In this document: piece by piece, positions 24,901 to 52,643 of the stretch
Numbering within the stretch: the first letter of the stretch is position 1
Layout of the letters: each line of letters opens with the position of its first letter
NCBI GenBank assembly: GCA_977862235.1
Contig: OZ374559.1
Span: 2,852,001 to 2,916,000, forward strand
Source of the DNA: Dudresnaya verticillata
Taxonomy: Eukaryota
Length of the DNA: 64,000 nt
Direction: 5' to 3'
Translations under genes and position numbers: made by a program
The notes under the pieces: model-generated
The model's input: the letters and a program-made list of their open reading frames with translations, nothing else
What the model was told of the DNA's origin: nothing
Database searches by the model: none

Positions 24901-25558
24901 ACTCTCTTCAGATTTTAGGTCTGGCGTTTCGGCAACAGCTCATCAGCCCCACACCTGGGGCCCAGATTAAGATTTCGCCTCAATCCACATCTCTCAAGTG
25001 ACTGTTGTTCGCTTCCTCATACTGGAGTACGGTCTAAGCATCGCAACGTTCGATCTGCAAAACGACTGGCGTTCCTCAGAATGACTAGTCGAAGCGGCGT
25101 GACCAAGAAGGGCAATTGGCCATCTCGATGAATAACTTGGCTTGCACAAGCCGTTCAGGTCACGAGGCTCATCGTACAAATGCGTAACTTGGCTTGTACA
25201 GCCGCTTCTGGCTTGTCGTTCAAACGGTTATACAAGCTGATATTTGTTCTTCTGTTCAATGGAATACTGTTCTGTTGAAATATTACATTGTTACGGTTAA
25301 CTTTCTCTTATGGCAGTTCACGGTATTATGTGCAGTGTTCTGTTTATGTTTCTTTGAGTCTTTGTACATAGTTTGAATAGCTTTCGTAGTACTTTGGTCT
25401 ATTTATATTGACCAAAGCTCGTACTTCGGATGACCCAGCCATCGAAGAACACACACACACTCAACAACAATTGACTGCTTCCTTTTTACCACTTGCAACA
25501 CTCTACATCCACTGTTCTAGCCTGTTTTCCTGCCGCTGCACCCGTCAATTTATTAGTT

Positions 25559-28238: not shown

Positions 28239-28457
28239 GTTCTGTTTATGTTTCTTTGAGTCTTTGTACATAGTTTGAATAGCTTTCGTAGTACTTTGGT
28301 CTATTTATATTGACCAAAGCTCGTACTTCGGATGACCCAGCCATCGAAGAACACACACACACTCAACAACAATTGACTGCTTCCTTTTTACCACTTGCAA
28401 CACTCTACATCCACTGTTCTAGCCTGTTTTCCTGCCGCTGCACCCGTCAATTTATTA

Positions 28458-30914: not shown

Positions 30915-33097
30915 GTGCTCGCTGACGACTCTGTTTGCATTGAAGAGGAGAAGCAGCAGCTTCAGGAAAGGGATGGAATTGACACAAAAGTTGGCTTGTA
31001 CATGTTCGGAGGGCTCTCCCCAGTTGAGCTTTCTAATCTGCTGGGTTCCAACACTGCGAACGAAAACGAGTGGCTTTCTTTGGGTCTTCTCCACTCGAAG
31101 AATAGAATAACTATCTATGGGCTTCCACGCACGGTTCAATACTCCTTTCCACGGTCTGAAGTTGAGAAGAGATGGGTGTACGAAAGGGACGAAGGGTCTT
31201 CGGAGCAGGTAGCTATGAAGGCAACTGATTGGGTTCGCAAATGGTTGATCGAACGAAATTTAATTCCTCCTTGGTTCTCTCCAGTTGTGTGTCCCAGTAA
31301 TTTGGATCTAGCCCCAGCCGATCAGCGCCGTGTATCGAAGCGAATGAAGCAGGTCAGAGAGCGATGCACGGGGACTTTCAAAGGCAACGCGGACTTCTTC
31401 AAAATGTTTTGTTGCAGTCTTAGCACTAGTACATTGCACTGCTGCCCTGCTGCCCTGCTCAAATGCACTTCGCGGTATTCTCTTGTGATGTTTCGAATAC
31501 AGAGAAAATATTCATACCTATTCAGGTAGTGTGGCTTCTCCAATGCGAACATCACGATGATGAAAAGAGTTATGGTTACGTCAAGAGCGGAGACAAAACC
31601 GTAGATACGCGAAAGACTCCGTTCGATTTTATGCTTGGATACGGCTTCTGGTATTGACCCACAGTCCATTGTGTCGGGTAACAGGAGCTTCGGTTACCTT
31701 AATAACAAGGCTGCTCAGCAAGCTCAGTATCGGAGACAGCGTGAGTCTTTTGGCGTTGGACGAAGTTGCACGGAGAACATACTGCAAGCTATGCGTGAGT
31801 TTGTAGAACAAGACGCAAAGGCAGACCCATCGCTCCAACATAAGTTTCATGGTACGATACATGAAATTGGCATTGTCGAACGTGAGCTCGACTCCGTATC
31901 CATCTATCACCCCCTATCGCTTTTCCTTGCTTCTCAACGACTGAAGCAAAAATGTCACTACGTTGTGACTATTGATTGCACAGGATCGCTCGTCTCAAAT
32001 ATATGGATTTCATCCAACTCGGAAGTTGGAAGAGGAGCAATGCAAGCCGAAGATAAGTTATACAAGCCCCCAAGGGTTTCGCAAGACGGAATTAAGATTC
32101 TAGTAGAAGTCTACAACTTCCACGTGACTGTGCCCTTGCCAATCAGTAGTTTCGTGGCGTGTAATGCAGTAGTAGTAGGAAAGACCAACGCCATCTTCTG
32201 CAGAATTCTCCATGCTTCAAGGAAAAGCTCTCGAAGTAGTCAAACGAGGCGGAAGTTGGATATGTAGTAGCAGGCATGGCTATTCCATTCGCAAAAGCTG
32301 TTATAAACATGTTCAACAGCATGCAAATGCCCGAATACATAGCAACTCTGCTTTTTTCTGCCAAAACAGGTTCATCAAGTATCGCCGCTGAGAACACCAA
32401 AACAATATTGGTATGGTATGAGGTCCATGGCGACCGTCGGATGAGAAAGTTCGTCACACAGCAGCGTTCGAGGACTTGCAATACTCTTGATGAAGTCACC
32501 ACGAAGGAATTGACCAATCTGTTTGCAATATACGTCTCGCTCTTTTCTCTGCAAAGACTTACAGAGCATTTGCCTTCTAACTGGTTTCTTGGACATGTTC
32601 TGCAACACTGGTACCCTTCCAGCCTTTCCCTTATCATTCGCAAGCAAGTCCAGAACAGAGTTACTCTGTGCTCGGCTGAAGAATTTTAATCCCACGGAGA
32701 AGGGATACTATGGCGTCATTTGGGCGGTGTGCCCGGCAACGGTTCTTCCCTGCAACGAGTAAGAGTGAATGCGTGCCGATAGAAGGGATACAACTCCACG
32801 AAGTTTGAACAGCTCTTTGAAAACTTCTCCCGGGGTCATGTATCGATCAGGACTGGCACCGGCCACGGCAGTCGCAACTTGGCTGGAATATCAGATGAAG
32901 CATGTTCGAAAGAAGTCGATCAATGCAGGTTTGAGGAAGCCGAAATGCAAGGGGGAAGCAACTTCTCCATAGAGGGATTAATCCAGTCGGAACAGAGATT
33001 CTATGAGCTGAAGTTCGGCGTATACAGCGTGCTCGTGATCGCTCGAGAGGTGTTGGAGACGGCGGAAGGGAAAAGCACTTCCAGATACATAATAGCT
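30915..33097 (+). pseudogene. N-terminal part of a decayed Mutator-superfamily (MULE/NOF-like) transposase
   Basis: GTIHEIG...VVTIDCTGSLV (first D) and MAIPFAKAVINMFNSMQMPEYI (second-D region) follow the NOF-type pattern as recalled; several stops and frameshifts. Confidence 0.65.
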
Positions 33098-35225
33098 CAC
33101 TACAAGGCCATTTCTGAACAGATTTTACAATAAGGCAATACGTGGGCCATCGCGCATGGGCCAACACGAATTTGATAAAATCATATCTATAATTTTGATT
33201 TGCCGCCTTGCACGTGGCCAATAGTTTATCACTTAAGCGACGGCTGATTTATCCGCACGGCGCGTTCGCTTTCACTGTTCTGGGTTCCATTATTCTTCTG
33301 CAGCAGACCGACTCATTGAGACGAGGACACTGCGGCGAGATGTGTCGCGTGTCTATATCTCAATAAGGTGCAACCGAGTGCTCGTATTCCCATGTGTCAC
33401 TGCAATCTTCAGATTGATGTCTCAGACGAACTAAGTACTGCGCTAGCAGCTTTCGCAGTTCTGTACCCCGCTCGAAACTTCCTAACACGCTTATGCATGC
33501 AGTTCTGCCATCTTCAGCGCAATGGCTTCGAACCCCTCTCAACACCTTAAGATGTTGCGCTCCATGCATAGATTTTGTAATCCGTAAGCAATAGCATTCA
33601 GCGCCTTTATTTCAAAATGTACCCTAGCAGTTGTGCGCAGTGGCGTTCATCCGTAGCAGTGATGTAGTAGAATACTCCAATGATACAGAGGGTGGTCCTA
33701 CTAGAAGCGGTCGGTCGCCCCACCAGTTGTCCCGTGCTGACAGATCACTGCGATCGAGGACATCCGCCGGTCGATGTCCGTTTCTGCGGACGGCCGCCAC
33801 CCGAATGAGACGCCACTTGAATGTCGCGTACGCGAGATGCTGGTGTTGTTTCGCAAATAGACATACCACATAGATAGGTTAGGTAGGGAAGTACTCGCTG
33901 TAATCGCGAACAGAAGAACATGATCTTCCTGGAAACTGTGGTCAGACTCTCTGACATCTAGCCCAGGCTTCGAATAGCCTAAACCAAGCTTCGCAAACCT
34001 CAATGACGTGAGAACTCACCATTAAAGTGGCCATGTTTGCCAATTGTTACGAAAGCCCGATTAACGAGGCCGAACGCGAGCACATCAGCATGATCTTGCT
34101 CGGAAATGTGCGCAGACTGTTCCATGTAAGTTAGCTAGCTACTCGAGTAGCTGAATCCGAACGGAGCTTGGAGAGGCCTAAACGATGCTTCTCAGACATT
34201 GATGGCTTGATAACTTACCGGTCAACAAGACGACACGCTTCTCCACTTCTTCACTAGGTAGATCCATTCGAAGCGGCGGATGCCGCAGATTGTCTGCATG
34301 CCGACGAATGCGTCGCGTGCCGCCGCGTCTGTAGTCCCATGCGACGGGAAGTCCGATGAAGAATTTGACAATGTGATGTTCGAGAACTCGTTCCTGGATG
34401 CATTCAAAGGTCGCCCGCAGGTGTGTGCGCGCGCGCAGGCGGGCAAAAGGGCACCCAACATCTTGCGGGATCAATGTACTCCCGAAAGTCCGCGTACGCG
34501 GAACATTTGAAATGAGATTCTTGTCGAAAAGCGTTGTCTGCAGACAGACAACGCCCCACTGTACTGCATCCAGAGAGAGTTGCAACCGCAAAGATGATCT
34601 CCTGGTTTGAAACGAACGTTCTCTTTCGACACGTACTTGCAACGTATTATTTCTGTATTACCATTGGCTAGCGCCGTTATGGTGAATAGCACGATGACGA
34701 TCTCAGCGCACACATCAAAATTTGTGGTCAAAAATGTCTCCACGTAGTGTGGTATGCATTGAATGCCTGTGCGGGTATGATAGCCGCGCGCACGTGCCAT
34801 AACGCCTCATCCTGTTGGCCAGATGAGGTTTGTGTGATTCCCACGAGGGAATTGCCCGCATGCGCCCATGGCGATGCAGTGCATCAGGATTCGATATCCA
34901 TATGGACGTCCATTGAGTACTCAGGATGAAGACGACTCTGAAGAGTGGCATCGATTTGGATTGCAGTTCAATGCATCCATCGGATGATGGACAACAATAA
35001 TATAGTCCTGCGTTTTCAAGATTGTTATGGGAGAAGCTCATTTCCGATCGGAACTGCTCGAGCACCTTTGTACAAGATTAGCCGTATGGAGACAATTGTG
35101 AAGTTCTGTCCTAGCCTATTTCGTTCTGGCTTGCAATCCTACATTTTTATCGGAAGTACCGGCGAGCACTTAACACAAAACGTCATCATTGGCTAAGCCA
35201 CCTATCTCACCACAGAGATATTGCC

Positions 35226-36716
35226 CTACCACTTGGATAAACGCAGCGAAAGTTCAACAGTACCGAATACTTCTGCAGCGTTCGCTATTTCTCTCGACCA
35301 AGTCCGTAATGACGCATCAGGAGCCCTTTTCCAAGAAATTGTAAAGGCGTTCAGTTCTGAAATGGGCCCCGCGAGTGTTTGCTCTTGTTCCTGCTTCAAT
35401 ACAAGCTCATGGGTAAAACGAATCTCTACAATGTTCCAGTCTCTGTTTTTTCGAAGTAGTACAGGATATTTCCGCTTGAATTCCTCATTAGTGAAATCGC
35501 CCGCTGAGTTCTCATGAGTATGTGAATGTCGTGGAGGGTACGCAACGTTGCGTGCAAAGCTCGAGGCGATATGAATTCTAGAAGCTTGTTGCGAGTCCGA
35601 ATCAAACTCATACGACCCCAATATCCTGAGCAGATCCCCTGTCGGCGAGGAACCACATTTCCTGCACATTTCCAAGCGATCCGTAACGGAGTTAATGCCA
35701 ATACAATCGGACAAGTGTGCAAAAGACGGAAAGGCAAGTGTGAACGAAGTGCTTCCGGATGCTGGGACTTGCGTGTGGGAGAACTCCGGATCGAATTGTA
35801 TTCGCATACCGTTTGGTCTCGTCCGCATTTCTCGTGCCATACACTCGAACTGCTGTAGATTGCAATCCACTCTTACCTTGATTGTTCCCTGAAGTACTCC
35901 GTCTACAGATACTCCCCTGTTCACTTGACTGCCCTGAGCTCTCCCCTTCTTCACCGGGTTCCCGTACTGAACTGTCTTAACGGGGCCCTGCATTCTGATT
36001 GCGAGATTGTGTCGCAGTCGAGTGGTCACGCATCCAGAAGAAAGACATGACATCGTCGAACCTGACGCGCTGAAACCACGAGGTAGGGAAGATTGCTCCA
36101 CTCTGGACAATCTCTGCGATTGAAGCACGAGTTCTCGTTTCACTCTTTCCAGTTCAACCGCCACGTGTGCATGTGCCTCACGAAGCCTATACACTTCCGT
36201 ACTACGAAAGGAAGGGTCTGTACATTTCCCATCGCTCTTGGGTCCCACACTTTCTACTCGAGAATTCGTACGAAAAGATTCCCCCCAGTCAGCATCCGAC
36301 TCGGGCTCCGGCTCCGTTGCACCTCCGAGATATCGAGCATAGCGCCAAGAAATCGTCGGATGGGATAGGCTTTCGGGATCGGCTGAGACACCGTCATTAT
36401 TACCAGAGAACTCAATACTCGGAGCGACTTGTAGCAAATAGTCTTCCAGAAACAGGACAACGGAAACAGATTCAGCCCAGTGCTCACTGCTTGGGTAGCG
36501 TATCGTTCCGCGTGCAAGACATTCCCTGTCATTCAGTTCTGATTCTTCTTCGTCAAACATATGAACGACTTCTGCAAGGCACCATTGATCCGGACATCCG
36601 GGAAGTGTATCGATGGACCACAACACTTCTATGAAGTCGTTCTTTCGCGGCACCGCATACGATTTTGTTGCTCTTCGAGTTCTTGAAGCGGTAATACTTG
36701 GATCTCTCGTCACCAT
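35226..36716 (-). CDS. CACTA-borne 496-aa protein; possible N-terminal Tudor/Agenet-like domain and coiled coil
   Basis: Uninterrupted ORF; DFIEVLW...WCLAEVV...GTIRY resembles royal-family barrels; heptad-like stretch VAVELERVKRELVLQSQRLSRVE. Confidence 0.7.
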   Translation of the reverse strand: MVTRDPSITASRTRRATKSYAVPRKNDFIEVLWSIDTLPGCPDQWCLAEVVHMFDEEESELNDRECLARGTIRYPSSEHWAESVSVVLFLEDYLLQVAPSIEFSGNNDGVSADPESLSHPTISWRYARYLGGATEPEPESDADWGESFRTNSRVESVGPKSDGKCTDPSFRSTEVYRLREAHAHVAVELERVKRELVLQSQRLSRVEQSSLPRGFSASGSTMSCLSSGCVTTRLRHNLAIRMQGPVKTVQYGNPVKKGRAQGSQVNRGVSVDGVLQGTIKVRVDCNLQQFECMAREMRTRPNGMRIQFDPEFSHTQVPASGSTSFTLAFPSFAHLSDCIGINSVTDRLEMCRKCGSSPTGDLLRILGSYEFDSDSQQASRIHIASSFARNVAYPPRHSHTHENSAGDFTNEEFKRKYPVLLRKNRDWNIVEIRFTHELVLKQEQEQTLAGPISELNAFTISWKRAPDASLRTWSREIANAAEVFGTVELSLRLSKW

Positions 36717-37899
36717 ATTTACGTGAACACGCGTGCGAGTGACGGCCGTCTAGTCGATCAACTCAAAATTCTTCTTCAGTTCCTTGAGCATGGCCATGGT
36801 GCACCATGGCCTGCCGGTATGATTACTTGAACCAGAATATTTATACGCATATAGCTATACGTATACGCGTACGCGGAAAAGAGGAGACAATCTCGAAGAA
36901 GCGAACGCGAGTGCCTCCTGTTTTTCGGAGAGAAGCTCTTGCTGTCTCAGCGGAGATCTTCGGTGTGCATGTATATAAACAGTATACAGTCTAACACGGC
37001 ACTGACCTGAACCAAAAAGGCACGCGAGCGGTCAAGGCTTTTCTAGGCCACAGAAGCCACCATAAACTACTGGCCCGTGCCAGCACGACAAAAATGCTTC
37101 ATTTCGATCGCGTCTGGCTTCCGAAGTGTGCTAAGGCCACTAACATTTATTGTATTGAGACGACAATGGCATGCTTCTGAGCAGCAGTGCAGATGGAACA
37201 GGCACCCAATGCGATCCAGCTCCTGAGACGATCAAATTGATCGCGTATTGAATGCGCGGTTGCTCTGACCTGTCGAAACTCCACGTTCGTGACACTCGTG
37301 TCTGCTGTTGAAGCGACATTTTTCATCTGCATCCAAGTCCCTATGGGGCCCCATCCGTCCGGACTGGGCTTGGCGACAGATAAATGCTGAATAACGAGGG
37401 GCGCTGGATGAATCGATCCAGTGGCCTGTGCAACACTCTGAAGTTGAGATCTCATTTTCCTGTAATGATTCTATTTGTTCTCCCGCCTTTCTGGGTTTGA
37501 CTGAGATTGTCCGTGGCGTCGCGCCATCGTCTGCATCGATACGTTAAATGGAACCGATTCAAGACTATAGTCTGTATTGAGAACTTTCAATCGCAATTGA
37601 TCGCATTGCTGGTCCATCGTGCATTAATTCAGTGTCAGGTACCTGATCCTTGCTTGCGACCTCTCGAATTCCCGTCAACACAATGGCGCGAGAGCAATAC
37701 CGAAACACGGACCATTGGGAGACAGATACTGGACAGGCACTTTCACTGAATTCATGACCTCATGAGGCCTCAAGAGCAGTTCTGCATATAACCTCTGATA
37801 CAGTGTGGTCACGAAAAGGAAGGCTAGTAAGAGTTCATCTGCGAAACCGTGACTAGGAACGAGTAAGGTACCTTAAGGTCTAACACTGTTCAGCTGTAC

Positions 37900-40398
37900 A
37901 TGATGAAGGGTCGCTCGGCAGTTCGCAAGAAGACAGCTTCCGCACAAAAGATGAGGGCTTATCAAGATGCTGCCGCGGCTCAACGAGTTGCGTCCGCATC
38001 TAAGGCTGTTCAGCCTACTAGAGTTTCCCCTCGATCAAGATCAAAAGGTACAGCTTCACCAATTCAAGACGTTGTATTGAAAACGAGCATTCGCAAAGTA
38101 CCGCGGAGGAATAACCATTTACAAGAGCTCGAGCGGGTGGTGACAGCCACACCCGAAAAATTATCCGTACCAAACGGCGACGTGACCGCGCGACGCTCGT
38201 CGTCCGGTTCCGGTTCGAAACGAATATTGGCTCCGTCCCCTGAGAAGCCTGAAATGAAAAAGAGTAATGGTGAAATGCCAACAAGGAAACGAAGGTCTTT
38301 GAAGACCCCGCTTTCCAACTCGATATCACAAGAAAGGTCAGTGTCTCAGCGTACGCCGCAGAATCACTCTCCTGGAAAAGGGAACCCTTCAATCCTTGAA
38401 ACCGAAAACGATAATCAAGATAGTCCCTCTACAACACGCAGGGGTGAGGTGAAAAAGAATACAGATGATGAGGATGAGGAGAGTGACATGTTGGCTCCGC
38501 TCTCGTGCCGTGGATTGCCACCGACCAGATCTGGTTCTCAAAACGATGGACATGGCGTTCGACACCCTGGGCGAATGGACAATGAAGGTCTTTCTGCAGG
38601 AAGATCATTTGAAACTCCGGATCTTCGAGATATCCCTCTCTTTAAGGTCTCGCGTCCGCGGTTAGAAACATGTCCATCGGACCACTCAGACTACGCTGCG
38701 AAACAGATTTCCGCGAGCAACGCCAACAGAAGAATGCTTCAGGCTTTTAGGAAAGAACTTTTGGAAGATTTCAGGCTGCAAAGCCGGGAGAATCTCCAGG
38801 TTAGTCGGAAAATTCTTGACATTGTCAAGAATCTGGAAGGAGATGTTGCTGATCTTCGTGGACACGTGCATATGCTAGGGTCGAACGTGAAAGTGGGAGG
38901 CACTGCGAACGCATCCAAACGAATCACAGCTGCTCAATTCCGAAGCAAATTGGATTCATTGACACCATCTATGAACGCTGTGTTCTCTTCCAGTCTCCTT
39001 TCTCGCGTTCTTGCTTACAATGTTCCTATCTTTGTGAACAGAACATTTCGCTCGAAAGAAGGCAGCGTCGAGAGCAAGTCAGCAGCTGTGATGGCCGCTT
39101 TGCTGTTCAGCTTACAGCCCAAGGAAACTCGCAACTTATGGGAGACGGGAATTGGAAAACTGCATGGCGACTTCCGCTACACAGTTGTACGCAACCTTTT
39201 CTTTAACGTATCCAAAGACACATTTGGCTTGTTCAGAGAAAAACATTCTGACAGCGGAAGAGTGGACGGATCTGTGAACAGTCTAAGTGACCCGAAGCAA
39301 GCTGCACATAAATGGGGTAAGTCATTTAAGAGTTCTCCCATACGGAAAGGCGAGAAAAACGGTTCGTTGCAGCGAGGCGATCAAGCAAAGATAGCCCGTC
39401 CGAAGTGGCTCGCCCCCGGATACGTCAGTTCTGACAACGTTCTCCAGGCTCGGGTTATCCAGGAAAGAGTCAAGAAGAGTCGAGATGGACCCTGTTCAGG
39501 GCTTTCTGTAAAAGAAGCACCCACACGAGATGACATCGCTACTCATGGAGCACTTCGAGTTTATCGAGTTCTCGGATCACACCTCCACGCCTCCCGTGAA
39601 AATTTCAAGCAATCCTTCTTTCAGAACTTAGGATTCCTTCTCGTTGCATGGACTGATCTCGGAACCAAAGCCATACAGGCTACTTGCGAAATGAAATGGG
39701 CTGACCCTTCGTTAATTCAAGCGTCCCCTACGGAAAGTGACACTGATACAGTTGGGATCTGGGACATTTTCAGAATGGAAGACGTGCCTAAACCATCGGT
39801 TTGTCCTGCAGGGAGTGATGCAAAACTTATTATGGAAGCGGACGCTGAGAATAACCGAATCATGAAAGGTCTGTTTGAGAGCTGGGGAAATATGGTGCTG
39901 TACGCAAGTTATCAGGTTCAAGTGGTATCGGGTTCTGGTAATCAGAAGAGAAACGACAACACTGAACGCAAGATATTGTCTCGTGCTATCCATATGGTTG
40001 AAGTGGCGCTGTCATTCATCGTGGAGTATTGCCACGCACCAGACATTTCGTTGTTCCTGCGAACGCATGAATCTTCCTTTCAGTGCATCATGGTGATCGC
40101 GAACCTATTCAAGAGTCTGACTGTACAGTTTCTGAACAAGAGTCATTTGAGAGCTGGTCAAGTATGCTCGCCGTCAAGCGTTGTATCAGGCGTTCTCAGC
40201 TTGCAGGATTTACTCCCCGGTGAGTACAACCGGAAGTCTCTTTTTGAGAACAAATGCGTACGCATGACTATGAAGGAGTATGACAGGCTACATTACGCTG
40301 GGATGGAGGAAGATAACCCTAATGATGATACTCAGGACGATGGAGCAGAGGGGAAGGAGATAGCGGAAGATGATGATGAGGGTATAGGGTGTATTTGA
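37900..40398 (+). CDS. CACTA-borne 832-aa protein of unknown function, convergent with the transposase
   Basis: Uninterrupted ORF: basic, disordered N-terminus, coiled coil (ILDIVKNLEGDVADLRGHV), helical C-domain, acidic tail. Confidence 0.8.
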   Translation: MMKGRSAVRKKTASAQKMRAYQDAAAAQRVASASKAVQPTRVSPRSRSKGTASPIQDVVLKTSIRKVPRRNNHLQELERVVTATPEKLSVPNGDVTARRSSSGSGSKRILAPSPEKPEMKKSNGEMPTRKRRSLKTPLSNSISQERSVSQRTPQNHSPGKGNPSILETENDNQDSPSTTRRGEVKKNTDDEDEESDMLAPLSCRGLPPTRSGSQNDGHGVRHPGRMDNEGLSAGRSFETPDLRDIPLFKVSRPRLETCPSDHSDYAAKQISASNANRRMLQAFRKELLEDFRLQSRENLQVSRKILDIVKNLEGDVADLRGHVHMLGSNVKVGGTANASKRITAAQFRSKLDSLTPSMNAVFSSSLLSRVLAYNVPIFVNRTFRSKEGSVESKSAAVMAALLFSLQPKETRNLWETGIGKLHGDFRYTVVRNLFFNVSKDTFGLFREKHSDSGRVDGSVNSLSDPKQAAHKWGKSFKSSPIRKGEKNGSLQRGDQAKIARPKWLAPGYVSSDNVLQARVIQERVKKSRDGPCSGLSVKEAPTRDDIATHGALRVYRVLGSHLHASRENFKQSFFQNLGFLLVAWTDLGTKAIQATCEMKWADPSLIQASPTESDTDTVGIWDIFRMEDVPKPSVCPAGSDAKLIMEADAENNRIMKGLFESWGNMVLYASYQVQVVSGSGNQKRNDNTERKILSRAIHMVEVALSFIVEYCHAPDISLFLRTHESSFQCIMVIANLFKSLTVQFLNKSHLRAGQVCSPSSVVSGVLSLQDLLPGEYNRKSLFENKCVRMTMKEYDRLHYAGMEEDNPNDDTQDDGAEGKEIAEDDDEGIGCI

Positions 40399-40578
40399 AG
40401 ACTTTGAAAAGGCAGCATGTCATGAAGTAAACACAGTCGTTTTTAACATAGGAAGTTGTTCAGATACACATGTATACATTCGTATTGTACGACATGCATG
40501 CATAAATATATTTATACATGCATGTCGTACAATACGAATTTCTGGAGGGCTCCATCTCTCCATAAAAACGTTGCACCC

Positions 40579-43500
40579 TCAGGCCAATCGGGGTGGGTAC
40601 CCATTCAGTCTCCTTTGAAAACGCATCCTTCCTCCCTCAAGCAGGGTCTTGGTATGCAATACCACTCTTCTTGTAGCATCAATGCGACATTTGCTTCGGG
40701 TTCCCGTTTCCTGATCGCAAGCGTGGTACAGAGCAACTCTCCTTATTTCAGGACGGAGCTGCAAAAGTTGGACTGTGGAGGAATGAAACGGATTTTCCAC
40801 ATGAACGTATCCTCCTTGCTCCATACGGCAGCGCACGCAAATTGCCCAAGGGACCTCTTCATATCGCTGTAAAATTGCAACGACAGCAAACAGTTGGAGT
40901 TCTCCACCACCATTTGTAACGGGCTGAACTAGTTTTCTCTCCCTCATAACCGGTTCCAGATAGGTCTGTACAGTTGTTCCCTCATAGATGGTATCATAGC
41001 CCGCAGATCTTCCTCCTACAGACCCGTCGTTCCTTATTTTGTACCTTCCCGCACTGCTGTAGAGTCGGAACTGATCTGTCCCGCTCTCTTCCAGTCGTTG
41101 GTTAGAAGGAAACCAGGTGTTTAGCCAATCCTTCATCTCCGAAAACAAACTTGTCATGTCGTCTTCGGAAATTGGGACTTCTTTGGCTATGCTCTCTGCA
41201 TCTGTTATATTTCTGGGTACCCACATAGAGCTTCTATCAAGAGCGAAATTGCAAACTCGCTCATCCTTCTGCATTTGCCATAGGCAAGTTTTTGTAAATT
41301 GCTGCACAATAGTTGAGTCAAGTTCGTCTATTAATTCCTTCTCTTCAGATTCTTTCAGCAGATCAGCAACTTCACCATAGAACAGACGCCTCAGATACCG
41401 CTTTTGTAAGCGATCGCATGAGTTCTCATAATTCCTAACAGCCATAATTCTCCCCTGCCAGTCGTTTGCTAGGCAGTGTTCCACTGCCGAGAGGTGAGCG
41501 TCTTTCTGATTGCTTCTAGATATACATCTTTTCAGAGGTTGATGTGCGCACTCAAAAACGAGCTCCATGAACTCTCTTACGTGCCCAAAAGCAGGTATGC
41601 TATGCTCATACAGTTCCAAAAGTCGGTGAAGGTTCGGCCTATCCAGATGCTGCGTAATATCAGTGAACACTGAACACAACGACTCAACACTTTGCACGTA
41701 CTGCTTTGATAACCACCTCAGTTCTGAAATATATTTCTCATTCTCTTTCACCACAAACGCTTCAGCGTTAGCCCCGTCAAGCTCTTTTTCAGGCCACCAA
41801 TAAGTGAAAGCTACAAGGCGCTGTAGCTTTTGTAGTAGCTGGACCACTTGAGGAAACTTCCCATCTTCACCAGAAACATGAGAACTCATTGCGCGACAGA
41901 CAGGAACGGAAACCAAAAGGACGCAGAAGACAGAGGATAAGCTCATACTGTGAAGCTTTTTCTTGTTGTGGTTGAATACCTGCTTCTGTGTCAGTAATCC
42001 ATTCTCTTGTAGAGAGGCGCATATGCGCACATCAATTTCGGTACGCATTTCGTTCGAAGGTAGAGATGCGTAAACGGCATTTAAAATGTTCTTGGACAAC
42101 CCTGTTAGTAAATGGTCCGGAGCCACAAAGTTAGACCTGTAAGGGTCGAATAGTGCGGACACCACGCGATGGCCTTCCGAGTTGAGAGGAACTGCGCCCA
42201 TTCTTCTTTTGAGTGAACTTTGTAGGTAGAGAAGAGGGCAAGAGCTGTTTCATATTACTCCGTTCGGCTTCATCCCCAGCTTGTTCGCGTCGGTATCTGG
42301 AATTTGACCCTTCCGCAAAGCCTGATGTCTTTCACTTTGTCTCAGAAACGATGAATTGCTGGCATGCACAGCTGTTGTGTATCCGAATCTTGTGCCCTTC
42401 GCGTCCTGAACAGGTAGTCTTCTAAAAGCACATAGCGTGCAAGGAGATGATCCTACGTGCCCAATGACATCAACGGTTGCAGCAGACGCCGGGTAATCTC
42501 CGATGAACCCAATGACGTCGATAAAAATTGTGACGCTTTCACCGTTCGGAGCAAATCCCTGAACACCGGTGGTGCCGGCTACCACCAGATCTTCTGTTAT
42601 GTACCTGAGTATCTCGTTCGAGGAAACTCCGGGAGGTGTAAGTCCAATGATTCTAACAGATGAAGCTTTCCTTCTTACATGTGGCGGCAAAGAAAATGGC
42701 AGCAAATAACATCCCCCAGCTGATGAGGATGGACCCATCATCATTGATGCTTGGAAGTCATCACAGAATAAGAGAACTCTGTACACGAAATATTTAGAAC
42801 CATCCTGTAGACGTCCCCATGACCTTGTCGATATTTTTGGGTCATGGCCTTCTTCCTCACCAGCCTGTCGCTCCATGTTGACTTTCTTGACAGCATGCCA
42901 TTCACACTGAGAGTGAATTTCATCTATTGAGCTATCGGGTTGCTTTTCAGCTTCAAATGGTACCCAGCATAAAACTCTGGTGAGTGTTCCGGGCTGCACT
43001 CTCCAGTATCTGTGAATGAGAACGGCGAACGCCGACTGATTCGCTGTGGTATCTTCCGGACGGAGAAGGGTGCAAATGTCACCCGGAACAACCCGAGTTA
43101 CGGAACTGTTCTGGAGTCTCGCCCCTCTTCCAAATCTATGCATTATATTTCTTTCAGCAGACGTAGAGTGCATGAAACTTATCGCCTTCTTGAAGCTGCT
43201 TGTATCATCGGGTTCCGCAGCAACACACCATGTGCACAAAACGACGGCCCTGAAAATATATCCACATCCTGTACTGAAGATGCGGTAACCAGTTGCGAAG
43301 CTCGGTCTTCCAGTAGTGACTTCAACGGCAATACAATCCCCGTTCATACATATTTCCTCTTCGTTTGTAATTTCCCATTTCGAAGATTGCACAAATATGT
43401 GTTCGCATGAACATGTCACACGTTCACGTTGCCTAACCATTTTGGACCTGTTCAGGAATTGTTCGCTGGAATGACCTTGTCGGTTCGAACACGAAGGATA

Positions 43501-44628
43501 CATGACATTGAACAAAAAAAGGGGCTGCCACATCTATCTTCGCCCATGAACTTGGAAGGATTACTCTCACCTTCTCATTTTCATCATCTTGTGTACACAC
43601 AGAAGAGGGGGTTTGCGTGACTGATGTTGTTGTTACACATACATTACTGCCATCTTATTTGTTCTGTTCAACGTCTTCTTCTTCAATCAAATCCAATACT
43701 GAGTCACGGGATTCGTGTCTAGTCAGCAACCCACTTTGTGATCCTTTTCTTTGAAGCTTTACCAGTTTGCTGGATGGGAAGCATGTGTTCACAAGCGAAA
43801 TAAAGTATCTATGAAGCCTCTTATATGGTGGCATCCTGACCTGCTCCCCGTCACGTAAGGAACCAGGACTTGTAATATCTTCAACCAAATGCTTCAAAAG
43901 CTCATATTGTAGTACTGTATGGCGAACGCTTCCGACAACACAGAGTATTGAAGTCAAATGCAATGGTTCTGCCCACATTTTTTCATCCTCCTCATTACAC
44001 GCTTCATCCTAGAGGTTCCCAAGGTGCACACAGGCATGCCTCGAACGTTCTCATGGACTGCCGGATGCCGACGGAAAAGGGACCCCTGCTCTTCTGTTTC
44101 ATGCTCTGCATCAGACTCGAGCCTGCCAGTTAGCTCTTCAGACCTATGTAATCCGCTCGGAGGCAGGCCATTATCTTGTGCACAAGCAGCTGAAGGAACG
44201 ACTTCATCGTCTCCGTCTGAGAACTCAGCAGAATCGTTTTCTCGCAATTGTTTTAAGACCGTGGCAGCATTACCCATTTCTTCATCCCTGAACTCTTGAA
44301 AGAGGTTATCCTGTTCAGGTTCCGCTGCACATTCTGGCGCTATGTGCTCCTCAGCATTTTTTGTTAGCCTATATCTCGTTCCTAATGGTAGAGTATCGTT
44401 TCTCCCAACGCGTCCTTCCGCGCCGTTCGGTTCAACAGAGGGATTGTGAAGACTTGTATGATGAGGGTCCACTTGGGGACCGTGTGATCCTCCAGGCTCT
44501 CCACCAGAAGAAGAGTACTCAGTTCTGATATTTTTCCTTATTCGTCTTGCCCTGAGATCTTGAAGCCAGGTAGATTGATCAAGTGTGCTGCGACGCCTTC
44601 TTCTCTTCTCACTCAGATCGTAATTCAT
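40579..44628 (-). pseudogene. CACTA/EnSpm (CMC superfamily) DDE transposase, lightly disrupted
   Basis: LLFCDDF...SAGGCY...LPPHVR; FIGDYPA...GH...PCTLC; APDHLL; PNLHRLLE...FGH...MELVFECAHQPLK. In-frame stops at 42250 and 43655, frameshifts near 43515 and 43970. Confidence 0.88.
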
Positions 44629-45972
44629 GCTTTCTGACTTTCTGAATCGTACGGCGTAACACTCCGAACAAAATGATGACGTTTATCGAATGATAACGTC
44701 TGGCACAGCCAGTCAGATGGGAACAACTCAGTTGCAACACATGTGTTCACAGCATCAATTGTTGGGATAGAAGTCACGTAGTAACTAAACAGTCATAAGT
44801 GGCTTTGGTACCACAGAAATATTGTACGGGCAGTAGTGACAACCGTACCAATTTCTTCTCTTCTGCGTCCCAGTATTTCTGTACAGATGGATGAATGATA
44901 AGGGCAGGTGATATATCATAGGGAATGTAACAGTGCTCCTGTTAAGGTAAGGTTGTTCAGGGAAGGTTGTTCAGCGAAAGGGGAGTCAATTAGTAACTAG
45001 TATTGCTGTACGGCGCAAGAAAATGTAGCTACATTCCTAGCAACCCCCATCAAAAGCAATCGTTCGATTACGCTACGGCACGTGATTATAACCTGCCACG
45101 GCCGTTCTTGCCTGCATAATAAATCAGTGTTTCAAATATCTCGCGTACGCGATGCCCAGGACCACCCGTTTGAAGCAACAAATGGCAGTGGCATGCTTTC
45201 CTATGTAAAGCATGACACGGAAACAATTACTTTGCACTTCTGTGCTGATGAAAATGAAAGCCTTAATAAATACACATGGCTTTCAATGCATGGCATGCCA
45301 TGCCAAGGTTTATAGAACAATTGTTTTATGATTAATCAGTATATGGTGATTGTATACTAACACGTATCGTTATTGTAATTCCAATCCATTTCAAAACATG
45401 TTCACATACACATGAAGCGAGGTTTCCAACATATTGGAGTTGCACTTGGGATGATCTATGGCATGGAGGTTTCGCTCCTATTGTTGCACCAAGCTGATTT
45501 GATTGTCAATAATAGGCTATATATAGGGTATTGAAATACCCATGGCTATAGCCAAATCTTACTGCGTACGCACATTTAAAACAGGGGATACAATTGTAAT
45601 GTGGGCCGTGGCAACACACAGATACCCATATGGACTGATATCAGCCCAGGCAATAGATGAATGCACGCTTGGAGCCAAAGTTTTAACACAGTGGGAGGAA
45701 ACAATGTAATGAAAAATTTACTAACGAAGGGTTTTGTTGCTTCTGTTCCACCATTCTGTATAATAAAACGTCCAGCATATTTATAAAATAGCCAAGTATT
45801 ATGCCGTAGGCACTGCCAAAACGCATTTATACAATTGTATCAATTAATTGATATGAGTGTCGCATGCAAAATTACATATGCATATGTGACGCTGGAAACA
45901 GCACAACACTACACATGTGTTGTATACAGCGTGTCATATGTAACACAGGGCACGACGCAATAAAAATGGCAT

Positions 45973-46162
45973 GGATACAGTACTGTTATGTACAATAAGG
46001 GTTGTCAATGGCATTGTCCCCGGGGCGATAAAAAGTGATGGCTCCTGATACTTTATTTATGTACGGTCATAAAAATTACATTTTTGCCGTGGCAAGGATA
46101 CAGCACTGTACAACAAGGGGTTTCAATGGCATTGTCCGCGGGACGATAAAAAGTGATGGCTC
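45973..46162. repeat. Two imperfect direct repeats of about 70 bp
   Basis: GGATACAG...TCAATGGCATTGTCC...CGATAAAAAGTGATGGCTC at 45973-46044 and 46096-46162. Confidence 0.85.
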
Positions 46163-46679
46163 TACATACGTTAGTGTAGGGTCCTCGGAGGGATCAGCGC
46201 ACGCTCAACCGTAGGCAATTGTCTGCCTGTCGCCGGGTTGGGGCCAATGTGGTACGTTCTATTGGTTTCTGTCAAAAGCGTTGGCCAGATCACTCGCCCC
46301 GTGACGAATTAACGATTAAATCGGTGCGTCTCATTGTGTACACATTCTAATTTGGCCAAGTGTTCTCGTATTGGAAACACCGGCCTCTTACTGGCACATC
46401 TCTTTTTCATATAATTTCATATCAGATCTAAGCGGCAGTGGCCTGAAGAGTGCCTTGACGAGCGCTCGTGCGCGCCTGTGGCCGTCGCGCGCGTGCCGCC
46501 GCGCGGGATCTTTGGGCAGCAGCCGACCGCCGCGGCCGCGGCGGCCGAGCCCGCTCGGGCTCTGGCATTATCAGCGAACGCTTGATATCAGCGCTCCGAG
46601 ACCGGCGTCCTCACCCGCCGACTAGGACTGCGCAGCTGTTCTTCCCATTGCCATCGCGAACGCGCCCGCTTTGCTCCCG

Positions 46680-47620
46680 CATCTCCGCTGTGCTCTACGC
46701 GCCGCGTCCGCTCGTCTGGCTCGCTTGCTCCCCTGCCTGTGTCGCTCGCGCGCCTGCTTCGCATCTCCCGCGTCGTCCGCGTCGCTTCTGCTGCTGTGCT
46801 GTACTCTCCGGACCGCTCGTCTGGCTCGCTTGCTCGCCTGCCTGGGTCGCTCGCGCGCCTGCTTCGCGTCGTCCGCGTCGCCCGCGTCGCCCGCATCGCT
46901 TCTGCTGCTGTGCTCTATTCTCCGCGCCCGCTCGTCTGGCTCGCTTGTTCGCCTGCCTGGCTCGCTCGCGCGCCTGCCTCGCATCGCCCGCGTCGCTTCT
47001 GCTACTGGGCTCTACTCGCCGCGTGCACTCGTCTGGCTCGCTTGTTCTTCTGGTTGGCTGGCTCGCCCGCCCGCTTCGCATCGTCGGGTTCGCTCGCTTT
47101 TGTTCATCTACTCGCCGCGTCAGCCCACCTGGCTGGCTTTATCGCCAGCCCGCTTCACGCGATCGCGTTGGCCTGGTCCCTCTCTGCTGTTGACCTACTC
47201 CCCGCTGCCGCACGCCTTGCTGGCTTGCTCGTTCGCCTGCTTCGCGTCGCCGTGGGCGCTTCTGCTACTCTGCGTTCCGCACCTACCTTCCTCGCCCGCC
47301 CGCCTGTCGCTGCCCGAATCGCTTCTGCTACCAGCAACTGTGCTCTACTCGCCGCGCCCGCTCACCTGGCTCGCTTACTCGCCTGGTTGGCTCGTTTGCC
47401 CGCCCGCTTCGCATCGCCCGTGTCGCTTCTACCGCCACACGCTGTGCTCTACTCGACGCGCCCGCTCGTCTGGCTCGCTTGCTCGCCTATCCGTCTCCCT
47501 CGCCGACCCGCTTCGCGTCGTCCTGGTCAGTTTCTGCTGTTGAACTATTCGCCGTGCCCACTCGCCGGGCTGCCTCGCTCGCCCGCCTGCCCGCTTCACT
47601 CGATCGCGTCGCCCCGGTCG
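46680..47620 (+). repeat. GC-rich, A-poor tandem array (about 9 units of 90-145 bp)
   Basis: Core CTCGTCTGGCTCGCTTG at 46711, 46816, 46931, 47028 and 47465, with degenerate copies near 47126, 47216, 47362 and 47560. Confidence 0.9.
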
Positions 47621-47643
47621 CTAGCTGCTATTTGGATATCGAC

Positions 47644-50277
47644 ATGTCCGGTAACCCGTACCAGCAGGGGGATGGGGCTGGACCGAGCAACACCCATGTT
47701 AATAGCGACGCTTATGGAAACGACCATGGTCACGCGTACGCTAACCAGTTTCATAACGGCTTCAGCCACGGAAGCGGTCGTGGAGCATATGATGAGTTCT
47801 CAAGAGGGGAATATCGTGGAAGAACTCGCCACGGCCTGGGAAGGGGACGCCGCATCCGCGATCGCCGATATGCTTACGGCAGACGTGACCAAGACCGGTC
47901 ACTTGTGACAAGTATTGATGCTGAGAATCTCAGCGGTCGCCATGAGTGGAACCTGGAACCGTCTCAGACGAACAGCTATCGCGATCTTGTTCAAGGAAAC
48001 ACCAACGCGCGCACCGACATGGTTCTGTTCAAGAAGGCTTCCGAAAAGGTCGGCGTACAGAAGTGCATGAACGAGTTCTCGAAGTTCATGCGGGCTAAGC
48101 GTCTATTTGATGTACCCACGACTCTTCGAACTGCACGGACACATGCGCGGGAAGCGAAAGAATGCTACTACCTCGAGGAAATGGAGGAATATCTCAACAT
48201 GGAGGCCATAGCGGGGAATGCACCCAGCCTCACTGTAGCCGACTTGGTGCCCCAAGATATTCCTATGCTTAAGCACTCGCTTGTTAAAAGGCACTTCCAC
48301 GCCTTCAGCAAGCGTCCGGGCTTCTTTCAGGAGCATTTAAACCGTAATAGGTACAGGCTATGGCTCCCACATGACAGCCCTGAGACGTCAATGCTGCCAA
48401 TCGATGTGCTATCTGGGTACTATCCCAAGGTCCAGAACTGGGTTTGGGATATCGAGCAGCCGTCCGCACTTCCTGTTTACACGCCACCAGTTTTGTACTA
48501 CTTCTTTACGGATCTGAGGGATGCTGTGCAGTGTGCAGAGAAAGTGGTTTCGGAATCAGGACCTCCGCTTTCAGAACGCTCACGAAGGCTTCTATTCGTA
48601 CTTCAAATGGAGTATTATGTCATGTTCATGCTGGCTTGGTTTAATGAAGCTGTTTACGGTTCGAAGATGTTTGTCCTCACCCCAAACACAATTAGAGTTC
48701 TCGATGATAATCTTGGCGAAGTGTCTGACATCGGTGGTGTACCGGCAGCCGCCATTCTGAAGCTGATGCATGAGGCAGAGGCAATCCACAAGGACTGGCA
48801 CAATTGGATCGGATTTGTGAACGAGGAGACGGTCTTCAGCAAGTTTGTATGGGCCGTGAGTGGCCCCGGCTTTGAGCCTACAGCCGACCGCGTACGCGAC
48901 TCTGGAAACACAACGTACTACAGTTACATCACCAGAAGAACCTGGACGGAGGAAGAGTATGAGATGGAGTTCTCCGAAGGTTATGTCAATGACACCGTGG
49001 ACAGTACAACTCTGGAAAGCAAGATGGACCGACACGACATCGACGCAATTCGCGGGCTTCGTCACCACGTCACTGCGTACTGGAACTTTTCAAACGGTGA
49101 TCCCAGTGTACGTCAAGTGCTTGGCATCATGATGCAGGTCAACGCTAACGAACATGCGATCGCAGAATAGAAAGCTAAAGAGCATAAGGACACAGAAAGG
49201 GGGGCGCAGCAGGTTCTTTACGGCATCGTCGACAGGATGATGTACCCGAAGAAGCCCGCTCTGGAGTATGGATAGTATCGTGAACACGACAGGGGCGCTG
49301 GTTACGGTCGCCGAGTGTACACCACGGATCATTACGCAAATCAACGCGATTACGTGGGTCCTAGCACTCGTACAGCTGCCAACCAGGCAAGCTACCCATC
49401 GTTCGATTTCAACCAGTACGCTGGTGATATGGGAACTACTAGGGCTCCACCGAGCAGGTATGCAAGTCGCGAACGCGGTGAGGGTGTCCGAGGATATCAA
49501 ACGTCAAGTCAAGGGTATCAAGATCCATATGCCACAGGAGGGCGAGGCGGTCACAGTCACCACGCCCCTTTCAACGCCATGGCTCAGTCTGCTATAGGGG
49601 AAAGAGTCCATAAGCAGCCAATCCCCCCGTGGGAAGCAGCTATTCAAGAGCGCACAACAGCGGCCAGAGAACAGCCCGCCGGCTCCGCTGAGCAGCTTCC
49701 AGTGCTTGACATTCGCGAGCCGGATGCTCGTGGCACTCGTACGCGTCCTGGCACTCCGCTGAGAAAAGAAACGGGAACCCGCACGCCTCGACCGGGCACT
49801 CCTATTCGACGAATAGACAGCCCATTTCAACCGAACAGAAGAACGCAGGCAGTGGCCATCCCCGAAGTGCCGATGCCTGGCAGCATTGCCAATAATATAG
49901 AAGCAATCGCGGCAGGAAAGCGCCCTCTTAAGGGTTCGTCGAGCACAGTTGGGATTGAGGCGAACGCCGGACCCAGCAGTGCAGCAGTTAATGGCTTTCA
50001 GACCCGGAGCGGTGATTCACGTCCGAATAAGATATCTCGCAGGGATGGGGCTGTGTCCCAGCAGACGTCGGAACCGAACGCAGGTATTGCGGAGCATGCG
50101 TCGGCAGCCAACCCGGGCTCCAATAGCGTAATGAGCCGGCACCCACCCACCATGGACGCGGAAATGCGCGCGGTACTGGAGGGATCTGGTCATGTTGCTG
50201 AATGTGGTAAGAGTAGTGCCGGTTCCGGAGCTGCGAAGGGTTCGGGAAGTAAGGGTGGTGTAGCAAAGAAGCATTGA
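47644..50277 (+). pseudogene. CACTA-borne orphan of about 877 codons interrupted by two in-frame TAG stops
   Basis: ORFs 47479-49170 and 49315-50277 share a frame; stops at 49168 and 49273; RG-rich N-terminus, globular middle, disordered tail. Confidence 0.7.
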
Positions 50278-50309
50278 GTAGTGTTGTTCAGAACTGAGAA
50301 TCTCGTTGA

Positions 50310-50922
50310 ATGAGTTCAAATCTGCTCAATGTAACAAATGGTGCATCAATAAAGCAAGACCCCAAAGAGAGTCAATCTGCCTTTGAAAGGTTGTGGAGTG
50401 CAAAAGGCGGCGCATCCCTACAAACCGTCCATTACCCGGGGCGTGTGCGCAATGCGGAAAAGAAAGTTCAGCGCCACGCCGGTTGCATTCATCGGAAACT
50501 CACTTGGGCGCGATGGTGAGGGCCACAACTTTGCGGGGGCTGCCCATTTTCAGACCTGTGTTGTTCATAATCGTACGTTCACCGCCTTCAAACCGCTGGT
50601 GGAAGAGGTACGCTCTGTCATGCGGAAGGAACCGGGATCAGCTCGTAGCAGGCTCAAGGCAGGTAATGCTTCAAATTTTGCATGGGCGGAACCGTGTGTG
50701 GAAGCCGCTGGTGTTGATGATATTGAGCGCCTAGTGTCTATGGCGTTGCTTAGCCCCGGCAGACTCTGAGACTTAGGGAGGGACTCTCAAAGCGTAGTTC
50801 GAAAGTTAGCTCAATTGAGTGCATCTGCTGAGTGTGAAGTGAACACTGAGCGCATTGAGACTGCTGCATCCTTCCTGGAAGAATTACTGCTTACCATCCG
50901 CACTGCTCGAAGCTTCTGCTAG
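50310..50922 (+). pseudogene. CACTA-borne small ORF remnant
   Basis: About 200 protein-like codons with a frameshift (near 50460) and a stop (50767). Confidence 0.35.
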
Positions 50923-51117
50923 CAGAAACGGGGGATGCGAATCGGCTCTCGATTAATTGCAATTGCGCCTGTACAGGTACCGCGGTACCATCGCGATGTC
51001 GGTGCAGCTCCATTCGATACAGCTGATCGCCTCAGCACTCGACTGTCTGCAAAGAAGGAAAGTTGCCCTCGCGAAGCTTGCATGCCACGGTAGTGCTACC
51101 GATACACATCCTACGTC

Positions 51118-52200
51118 TTAAGACAGTGAATTCACTTCAAGTCCGCCTGAAAGGTCTCCAATCTTCTCCGGGATAATGGTGGCCACCTGAAACAATTCAC
51201 CCATCCCCGTCTTGCCGACCAGTTTCTCATAATCCGTTTGCAACTGCTCCATCTTCTTATCAATGACCTCACCGCTCTCCCCATTCTTCTCGCCGTGTTC
51301 AATAACAACCTTAACAACCCGTCGAAACCTCTCTGAAATCCCCAAGCTTAGACCAAACTCCCTCTGCGACACTGTCCCCGCCATACTGACGCCCTGAGCC
51401 CCCTCTCGACTTACCATCTCCACAGCACTGCGCACCGCGGCAAAATCCACATACACCGTGAGCTCGCATTCGCCCGGCCGATGCAGCACGTCCACCTGCT
51501 CATGTCTGCTGAAAATGCGAAGCGTATCGCCGGTATGCCTGTCCTTCCCATAGTCAACAAGTAGCGCAGCCCCACCCCCATCTCTCACGGCCCGCGCAAC
51601 TGCTTGCACGGTTGCTATGCGCTCCGCTCCAACCTCTGCAATGCGCGCGTCGCGCGGCGGCGGGTGCAGCTGCAGCAGTTTATGCGCCGGCGTCCTCGAA
51701 GCCGTGAGTACAAGGCGCAATTGCGCCTGCTCGTCGTCAACGTCCGGATCGATGTCGACCAGCCGCTGGTGCCACTCATCAGCGCTGGGCTCTCCATCCG
51801 ATGCTCGCTGAAAAACGTTCACGGGCAACGCGTCTAGGAACTCGTGAAGCACGAATACTCTTCGTGGCGGGGTGCCACCATCTGTTGACAGTACGTGCTC
51901 CAGTGATGGGGCCCACGACAGCGGCGCGCCGCGGGAGGTGCGGCGCGGAGAGGGCGGCGCGTTACGTCTTGCGCAGCGAGTCGCTGGTGTCCACTAGCGT
52001 CACGGAGGTTGGTGCGTGGCCGAGGCAAGACAGCGCTGGAAAGGCTGTGGAGGGAAATGCGCCTGTGCCGGGGCCTAGCTCGATGAGGTGGAAGGGCGCT
52101 TTGGCGGTCTTTGAGAGAGTGTGTGCGGTCCACACAGCCAGAAATTCGAAGAATATCGGGGAGATCGAGAGGCGGCGCGAAGCAGCAGAAAGGCCAGGGT
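51118..52200 (-). pseudogene. NDUFAF7: Decayed copy of NDUFAF7/MidA-family SAM-dependent arginine methyltransferase
   Basis: ISPIFFEFLAVW...LIELGPGTG; HEFLDALPV; AALLVDYG...DTLR...HRPGECELTVYVDF; SQREF..LGI..R; MGELFQV. Frameshifted and lacks a clear N-terminus. Confidence 0.88.
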
Positions 52201-52569
52201 CATCGAGAACTGAGCGGCAAACATGGCCGCCTTGCGCTGCGTCGGCACGAGCATGCGCGACAGCGCGCGGCTCTTCGTCAAAACGATCGTGCACCTCGAG
52301 GTGCATGATGCGAACGATTTGGTACCAACACGTTGCACGTGTGCAATGCTGTTGATGAAATCGCAACGCAAAAGTGTCGAATGTCGCTTCCGCGATATTG
52401 AGCTTCCAGAAACAACCTCTGTTGCCCTGTGACGCCAGTAGCGGTGCGCGTGAGCAGAACTGCTAATTGCATTTCGGCGACAGGCGGCAATGGGCCGGGC
52501 CAAGTGATAATATGGTTGAAAATATAGGTTAAAAATATCGCAGATTTTAGGAAATGGCCTTGTAGTGCT

Positions 52570-52643
52570 ATTCCGTGCTTGTCGGTGCCGGTGAATTCCA
52601 TGTTTGATTCCGTGCTTGTCGGTGCCGGTGAATTCCATGTTTG
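52570..52643. repeat. Perfect 37-bp tandem duplication abutting the CACTA right end
   Basis: ATTCCGTGCTTGTCGGTGCCGGTGAATTCCATGTTTG occurs twice. Confidence 0.95.

Follow-up and report, generated by a model that had tools for sequence, protein, structure and literature searches.

A probable 19.5-kb CACTA-ended transposon of Dudresnaya verticillata, with a broken transposase gene and three accessory gene families linked to one transposase clade

What occupies the 19,470 bp between positions 33098 and 52567 of a 64,000-nucleotide stretch of the Dudresnaya verticillata genome (GenBank assembly GCA_977862235.1, contig OZ374559.1, positions 2,852,001 to 2,916,000 of the forward strand), and do the large genes found there belong together? 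The whole 64-kb stretch is referred to here as the window, and coordinates are those of the window unless a related locus is named. An original prediction, made from the letters of the DNA, described the interval as a 19.5-kb cargo-carrying giant CACTA transposon with exact boundaries. We consider it probable that the interval is a single copy of a DNA transposon with CACTA ends and a broken transposase gene, and the description is confirmed by a terminal inverted repeat (TIR) pair that is unique in the window, by a CT target-site duplication (TSD) and by the gene content.

The ends are given by a TIR of 17 nt, CACTACAAGGCCATTTC, whose left arm (33098-33114, plus strand) and right arm (52551-52567, minus strand) are 100% complementary. 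Both arms are perfect and start with CACTACAA, so that the CACTA..TAGTG termini by which CMC/EnSpm elements are recognized are found at both ends with 17 of 17 positions in agreement. When as many as three mismatches were allowed, the TIR pattern matched at two sites only in the 64-kb window, which are the two ends of the element, and at the same tolerance none of 100 dinucleotide-preserving shuffles contained two matches (mean 0.15). The perfect 17-bp TIRs of the original prediction are confirmed by these counts, and the CT duplication that it named is indeed present at 33096-33097 on the left and 52568-52569 on the right. Two flanking bases agree by chance once in 16 cases, and a 3-bp reading of the duplication fails (GCT versus CTA). 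According to PMC12730594, the TSD is 3 bp for EnSpm proper and 2-5 bp for the wider CMCT clade; the 2-bp CT is outside the former and inside the latter, and is of the Mirage/Plavaka-like 2-bp length.

Past the 17-bp TIR there is no alignable similarity between the two ends. Two subterminal 9-mers that were predicted to be shared, TTGCCGCCT (33200 and 52482) and TTATCACTT (33226 and 52502), are both present at those positions, but they are weak because the two 500-bp ends have nine listed 9-mers in common, of which about seven are independent, where our own arithmetic would lead one to expect about 1.9. A more telling signal is a motif with a GGCC core (TGGGCCA or ATGGCC), of which there are four copies in the first 130 bp (a cluster at 33106-33219) and three in the last 130 bp, counts that are reached by only 0.28% and 1.6%, respectively, of all 130-bp windows in the stretch. 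We treat this clustering as a lead only, because the motif was picked after looking; the copies at both ends are candidate protein-binding sites.

Does removal of the element restore the sequence into which it would have inserted? Excision in silico gives the joined frame ...RYIIA/IPCLSVPVNSM... (the slash marks the junction), and to that extent the predicted in-frame restoration is literally correct, but the joined frame meets a stop after 25 codons. A perfect 37-bp tandem duplication (52570-52643, plus strand) stands immediately after the right TSD copy and shifts the flanking reading frame, and only if one of its copies is also deleted does the joined frame run for 147 further codons. The interrupted flank had been predicted to be a MULE, an identity that found no support in a Pfam scan of the five flanking open reading frames (ORFs), none of which was matched.

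The transposase gene of the element lies on the minus strand at 40579-44682 and comprises about 1,350 codons. A word-based search with its main frame found 34 homologues (E 1.5e-237 to 6e-50), which range in length from 565 to 1,399 aa (most have 1,240-1,400 aa), share 26-46% identity with it and are all unnamed proteins from metagenomic or assembly sources. As judged from the alignment of these sequences, the transposase of this copy is a pseudogene and the element copy is defective. A TGA at 42250-42252 is a nonsense mutation and not an intron, because in the alignment it takes up an ordinary column and brings no extra residues. In the N-terminal part the frame changes twice, near 43530 and 43960, and there is another stop codon; the N-terminal parts of the homologues align to 43987-43526 in a different frame from the main transposase frame.

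To which group of transposases does it belong? Blocks conserved over 17 aligned transposases are LYxDDF, GDYPA, GH..PCxxC, KPNxHRxxELxxH and ELxFExxHQ, and the C(2)C motif past the second catalytic D (GDYPA...GH..(A/S)PCxxC) is present in all 17 rows. Pfam Transposase_21 matched the 427-aa N part over its D-D region at E 0.0022, with 17.7 bits against a cut-off of 28.6, and among relatives it matched one of the 17 family members (E 0.00036) and none of 25 further ones. The Pfam family Plavaka (PF18759) matched a single relative, L012, at E 0.0067, below the cut-off, and did not match the transposase of the window. The transposase profile found nothing in the PDB, retrieved only family members, none of them Pfam-labelled, in a second word-based search, and gave 85 pattern matches in a scan of viral contigs, none of which was confirmed. 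Where the original prediction spoke of a CMC DDE transposase of about 1350 codons, the size stands, and the CMC label is a provisional one drawn from the CACTA ends, the C(2)C motif and the sub-threshold Pfam matches.

Whether the other large genes travel with this transposase can be judged from related loci. A profile of the 17 transposases (A1) led to 36 metagenome loci. When every window ORF of 70 aa or more (328 in all) was compared by phmmer with the ORFs of these loci, six ORFs of the element were matched. Three of these belong to the transposase (its two large frames and a small piece at 43436-43654), and the others are ORF507, ORF843 and ORF658. Rows at chance level in the same comparison (E 3e-4 to 8e-4) came from 50387-50731, inside the element, and from 62313-62528, outside it. 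ORF843 (family F843) encodes 832 aa from an ATG at 37900 (37900-40398, plus strand) and is convergent with the transposase gene, ORF507 (family F507) encodes 496 aa from an ATG at 36716 (35226-36716, minus strand), and ORF658 (family F658) encodes 508 aa from an ATG at 47644 (47644-49170, plus strand) and is divergent from the transposase gene.

A counterpart of this arrangement is locus L007 (9.5 kb), with a transposase on the plus strand, an ORF843-like gene on the minus strand (4229-6451; pairwise E 1e-17 against the window) and an ORF507-like gene on the plus strand (7487-8938; E 1e-7). Order and orientation are those of the window, with ORF843 convergent on the transposase and ORF507 beyond it, pointing away. 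L013 (13.4 kb of a 16.6-kb contig) holds an ORF843-like gene (1-1596, plus strand; E 4e-10), an ORF658-like gene of 907 aa (2369-5089, minus strand; E 3e-23), the 5′ part of which contains a 21-bp repeat in 11 copies, and a transposase gene (8145-12493, plus strand). A third locus, L028 (7.1 kb), has a possible ORF507-like gene that was found by jackhmmer only. Downstream of the L013 transposase, at 12600-13350, a CCAnCAAAATT-like motif recurs densely in degenerate form over about 800 bp; this region ends near ...CTGCAGTG and resembles subterminal repeats with a possible CACTG terminus.

The transposases most similar to that of the window (33-41%) are those of L001, L002, L008 and L009, and these loci carry a different gene convergent with the transposase, a DNA-methylase ORF with a PF01555 domain; complete copies have about 970 aa, and the copy in L001, cut short by the contig, has 507 aa (the regions concerned are L002 4364-10780, L008 7421-13521, L009 6630-9590 and L001 2685-4205). 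In L002 and L008 the PF01555 ORF is followed by a second large, paralogous ORF, and a marine relative of this second family has a weak PhyH match (E 0.0023). A quick maximum-likelihood tree of 20 transposases, midpoint-rooted and with long branches, grouped the window with L013 and the L003-L007/L010 group (SH-aLRT 96), placed the four methylase carriers in a sister clade (SH-aLRT 98) and gathered the marine contigs in a third (SH-aLRT 100). In the clade of the window, only three of the eight rows come with flanks longer than 3 kb, and each of these carries F843/F507/F658 genes. These comparisons, all of them of sequence, lead us to conclude that the three accessory gene families are linked to one transposase clade. 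The prediction of a multi-gene giant CACTA family with its own accessory set therefore gains support from the distant homologues that adjoin related transposases in L007 and L013. It had been set out beforehand that inner ORFs with ends of their own, or genes that never co-occur with this transposase, would speak against such a family, and the evidence is the opposite in both respects: homologues of the genes co-occur with related transposases, and a self-comparison of the element found no inner LTR-like or TIR-like pair (LTR, long terminal repeat) bracketing genes.

What kinds of proteins do the three accessory genes encode? No Pfam domain was found in any of them, and a literature search found no description of F843, F507 or F658 proteins, although Repbase and preprint supplements could hold them. 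The ORF843 protein has a basic disordered N-terminus, a helical conserved part and an acidic tail, from which one might guess that it is a DNA- or chromatin-binding partner. A word-based search of 5.8 billion proteins gave no match to it at E <= 0.001 among the 7,992 candidates scored, its best score in an Atlas search (0.80) was at chance level, a PDB profile search returned no matches, and an AlphaFold2 model from a three-row alignment was unusable (pLDDT 34.4). For ORF507 the Atlas search gave no usable match and the PDB profile search none at all. The convergent ORF843 and transposase genes have their stop codons on either side of a 180-bp gap, and a 62-bp palindrome within it (40478-40539; 31-nt arms, 97%) may be a two-way terminator. 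Three short open frames on the minus strand at 33701-35077 (104, 159 and 120 codons), none with a match, are possibly a decayed gene.

In a set of 1.84 billion cluster representatives a two-row F658 profile found 178 relatives at E <= 0.001, 67 of them at <= 1e-10 and 22 at <= 1e-30; among the matches listed, 132 of 150 fell on a conserved domain of about 340 aa and 18 of 150 on the low-complexity N-terminus only. These relatives, together with the homologues beside related transposases, remove the orphan status that the original prediction gave to its three large ORFs, two of which (496 and 832 aa) stand as described. Of 30 longer F658 members that were scanned, three have a RING finger, and two of these also a Ulp1 protease domain; the proteins concerned are the distant members P0203, P0221 and P0185, with Ulp1 (Peptidase_C48) in P0203 and P0221.

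An AlphaFold2 model of the conserved F658 region (47866-49167, from a 77-row alignment) reached a pLDDT of 90.5 and a pTM of 0.84 and predicts a mostly helical fold with a small sheet. By sequence the family found nothing in the PDB below E 0.7. Foldseek searches with the model gave no match at E <= 0.001 in the PDB (the top weak rows were OTU proteases at E 0.3 and TM 0.10) or in BFVD, and VIA-align found none at Z >= 5 among 48,161 chains, its best hit (Z 3.9) covering the last 50 residues only; as the model exceeds 400 residues, these fold searches may have missed a single-domain match. A protease reading suggested by the OTU-like rows was ruled out, as there is no conserved Cys/His pair; conservation falls mainly on R, D, E, W and P. 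The F658 domain thus has a confidently predicted fold for which no solved counterpart was found in these searches.

The predicted GC-rich array lies just upstream of ORF658 and is a C/T-biased tandem array on the plus strand (46687-47600) with units of about 97-115 bp; its core is 46687-47121, it reaches about 47600, its GC content is 66-70% and none of its units are inverted repeats. Downstream, in a frame other than that of ORF658, follows a low-complexity open frame of 333 codons (49276-50277, plus strand). The third large ORF of the original prediction, a gene of about 877 codons, would have to join these two frames, and it is not established because the C-terminal part of the L013 homologue does not resemble the 333-codon frame; what is found instead is a protein of 508 aa and a separate 333-codon frame.

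The predicted host-gene copy is confirmed and can be named. It is NDUFAF7-like (Pfam Methyltransf_28, E 2e-28), lies on the minus strand at 51118-52462, and matches the structure of an NDUFAF7 homologue (5ztz) over residues 161-396 of 414 at E 5e-23. The N-terminal S-adenosylmethionine-binding part is in another frame, so that the gene is near-complete but frameshifted. It has no counterpart in the related loci, and its GC content (59-64%) exceeds the roughly 50-58% of the ORF658 and 333-codon frames and the 38-53% of most of the element outside the array. It is most likely a captured copy of a host gene, carried as passive cargo. A Pfam scan of the 90 small ORFs of the element found a piece of this gene and one chance-level match only, and neither these nor the 12 larger ORFs encode a reverse transcriptase, an integrase or a second transposase.

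How secure is the conclusion that all of this is one CACTA-ended transposon? Several observations weigh against it. The assignment of the ends is based on a single copy; the TIR of the window is absent from the 36 related metagenome loci, and a CACTA-type TIR pair was found in none of them (0/36). A 2-bp TSD alone is insufficient proof of a single insertion, and the restoration of the flanking frame depends on the additional removal of the 37-bp duplication. In the transposase, the H(3-4)H motif given for CMC in PMC12730594 is not evident before the catalytic E, where H-x7-H is found instead (in an alignment read by eye and without reference CMC sequences), and every Pfam match to families of the CACTA clan falls under the curated cut-offs. 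Gene order differs in L013, where the ORF843-like gene is upstream of the transposase gene and on its strand, and ORF507 is only weakly linked (phmmer E 7.5e-5; L028 against L007 pairwise, E 0.011).

Could the 17-bp inverted repeat be a chance match, and not the ends of an element at all? The single copy and the loss of similarity past 17 bp would fit such an accident, but the shuffle control, the CACTA start, the identical flanking dinucleotides, the exact bracketing of a gene set that is shared with relatives and the clustering of GGCC-core motifs at both ends speak against it, and we regard it as very improbable indeed. Somewhat less remote, though still unlikely, is that the region is composite and consists of nested independent insertions or of host DNA trapped between two partial elements. 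Such an origin would suit the uneven GC content (38-53% to 66-70%), the NDUFAF7-like gene that the related loci lack, and a TSD too short to prove a single insertion by itself. Against it are the homologues of ORF843, ORF507 and ORF658 that travel with related transposases on independent contigs, the lack of an inner LTR- or TIR-like pair and of other mobile-element proteins in the scans described above, the identity of the ends over 17 bp and a flanking frame that is compatible after excision. We therefore retain the single transposon as the probable explanation.

What kind of CACTA-type transposon would this be? Canonical plant En/Spm elements produce TnpD and TnpA by alternative splicing of one transcript and generate a 3-bp TSD. 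The element of the window is like them in its CACTA termini, in the D[FY]PA...C(2)C region of its DDE transposase and in its short subterminal motifs, and unlike them in its 2-bp TSD, in its four large genes, which are separate units on both strands, and in a Transposase_21 match that stays below threshold. There are fungal Plavaka and EnSpm families that carry TET/JBP dioxygenase genes (PMC12730594), and the Plavaka elements of that account end in TGT..ACA (PlavakaA) or CATCA..TGATG (PlavakaB) with 2-3-bp duplications. Our element resembles these fungal families in its CMC-related transposase and in carrying accessory genes, and its 2-bp TSD fits their 2-3 bp; it differs from fungal Plavaka in its CACTA..TAGTG termini and lacks a TET/JBP dioxygenase gene.

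There is also a close likeness to the giant Plavaka elements of Bostrychia moritziana. According to a preprint (bioRxiv 10.1101/2025.02.11.637652), these are 17.4-19.1 kb long, occur across Florideophyceae, make up 36% of the Bostrychia genome and encode a transposase with three accessory genes, PAG1-3, for which a role in modifying DNA or chromatin is proposed. PAG1 is without a known domain, PAG2 combines PF01555 with SET, and PAG3 has a ParB-like N-terminal domain and a 2-oxoglutarate (2OG)-dependent oxygenase, with adjacent tandem arrays of inverted repeats. On that description the two systems agree in size (about 17-19 kb, here 19,470 bp), in a DDE transposase with three large accessory genes, in a tandem array adjoining one accessory gene, in the state of their copies (most are degenerate there, and the copy here is defective) and even in having first been labelled MULE-related by automatic or first readers. 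As judged from their sequences, moreover, the methylase ORFs of L001, L002, L008 and L009 match the published description of PAG2, so that the sister clade of the window transposase has the PF01555 gene that characterizes it, and the second ORF of L002 and L008 is possibly PAG3 (its profile found nothing in the PDB). Enlarged En/Spm families of Chondrus crispus (Kojima 2013, Repbase Reports, as cited in PMC6431247), which have 4-5 ORFs in 16-20 kb, are alike in size and ORF number, a comparison made by description only.

Is the element then simply a diverged member of these described red-algal Plavaka/EnSpm families, its ORFs being genes already described (such as PAG1 or the Chondrus crispus ORFs) and its gene set nothing new? 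Its size, its gene number and the array beside an accessory gene fit both published descriptions, the sister clade bears the PAG2-like genes, and PAG1, like ORF843, ORF507 and ORF658, has no recognizable domain; as the window ORFs were compared with PAG1 by description only, any one of the three could be PAG1. In contrast to Bostrychia as described there, however, no PF01555 or SET domain was found in any ORF of the element (12 large and 90 small scanned), no ParB or 2OG-oxygenase signature was detected in its genes or among the F658 fold matches, and its array lacks inverted-repeat units. ORF658 is predicted to be mostly helical, and profile comparison relates none of the three accessory families to the PAG2-like genes of the loci (hhalign probabilities of about 0.1 for F843 and F507); nor does it relate F658 to the possible PAG3-like family (probability 0.1), a comparison that covered F658 alone. 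We hold identity with described genes to be a real possibility, yet a doubtful one. What we conclude in its place is that the element is likely a further defective member of the known class of giant multi-gene CACTA/Plavaka-type elements. Giant CACTA-type elements with several genes were known before; what may be new is the accessory set of the clade of the window and the F658 fold without a solved relative.

How would such an element move, and what would its accessory genes do for it? Movement is likely to have been by DDE cut-and-paste transposition, creating the 2-bp duplication, and this copy would now be mobilized only in trans, by a transposase from another copy. By analogy with the PAG genes, F843, F507 and F658 could form a clade-specific accessory module that aids transposition or shields the element from host silencing, and by analogy with TnpA of En/Spm as well as the PAG genes they might serve it through end binding, chromatin or anti-silencing. 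It is tempting to speculate that one clade replaced the DNA-methylase and oxygenase genes of its sister with the F843/F507/F658 module, and that F658 is a widespread transposon-borne fold acting in transposition or anti-silencing through an as yet undescribed mechanism, but we offer this only tentatively and would sooner doubt it than assert it.

Other features of the window stand apart from the element. A Gypsy-type LTR retrotransposon at 3409-8866 has 383-bp LTRs of 99.7% identity and reverse transcriptase, RNase H and integrase matches; an element at 14973-19399 has 349-bp direct repeats (99.7%) and an ORF of 1,209 codons with no Pfam match; and another at 25337-28457 has 219-bp direct repeats (100%) and ORFs with a weak DUF1759 match. 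An intron-free GH18 chitinase gene with a CBM5/12 module (11205-12794, minus strand; Pfam E 2e-73) is probably a host gene, and just downstream of its 3′ end is one copy of a 134-bp repeat (467-600 and 10935-11068, 95.5%).

Giant DNA transposons with accessory genes can amount to a third of a genome. We conclude that the element of the window and its relatives differ in their accessory sets from one transposase clade to another, with a gene of the DNA-methylase type in one and three genes without a known domain in the other. The NDUFAF7-like copy most likely represents the capture of a near-complete housekeeping gene by such a transposon. Finally, with 178 public relatives, a confident predicted structure and no solved counterpart found, the F658 domain offers a concrete target for study.

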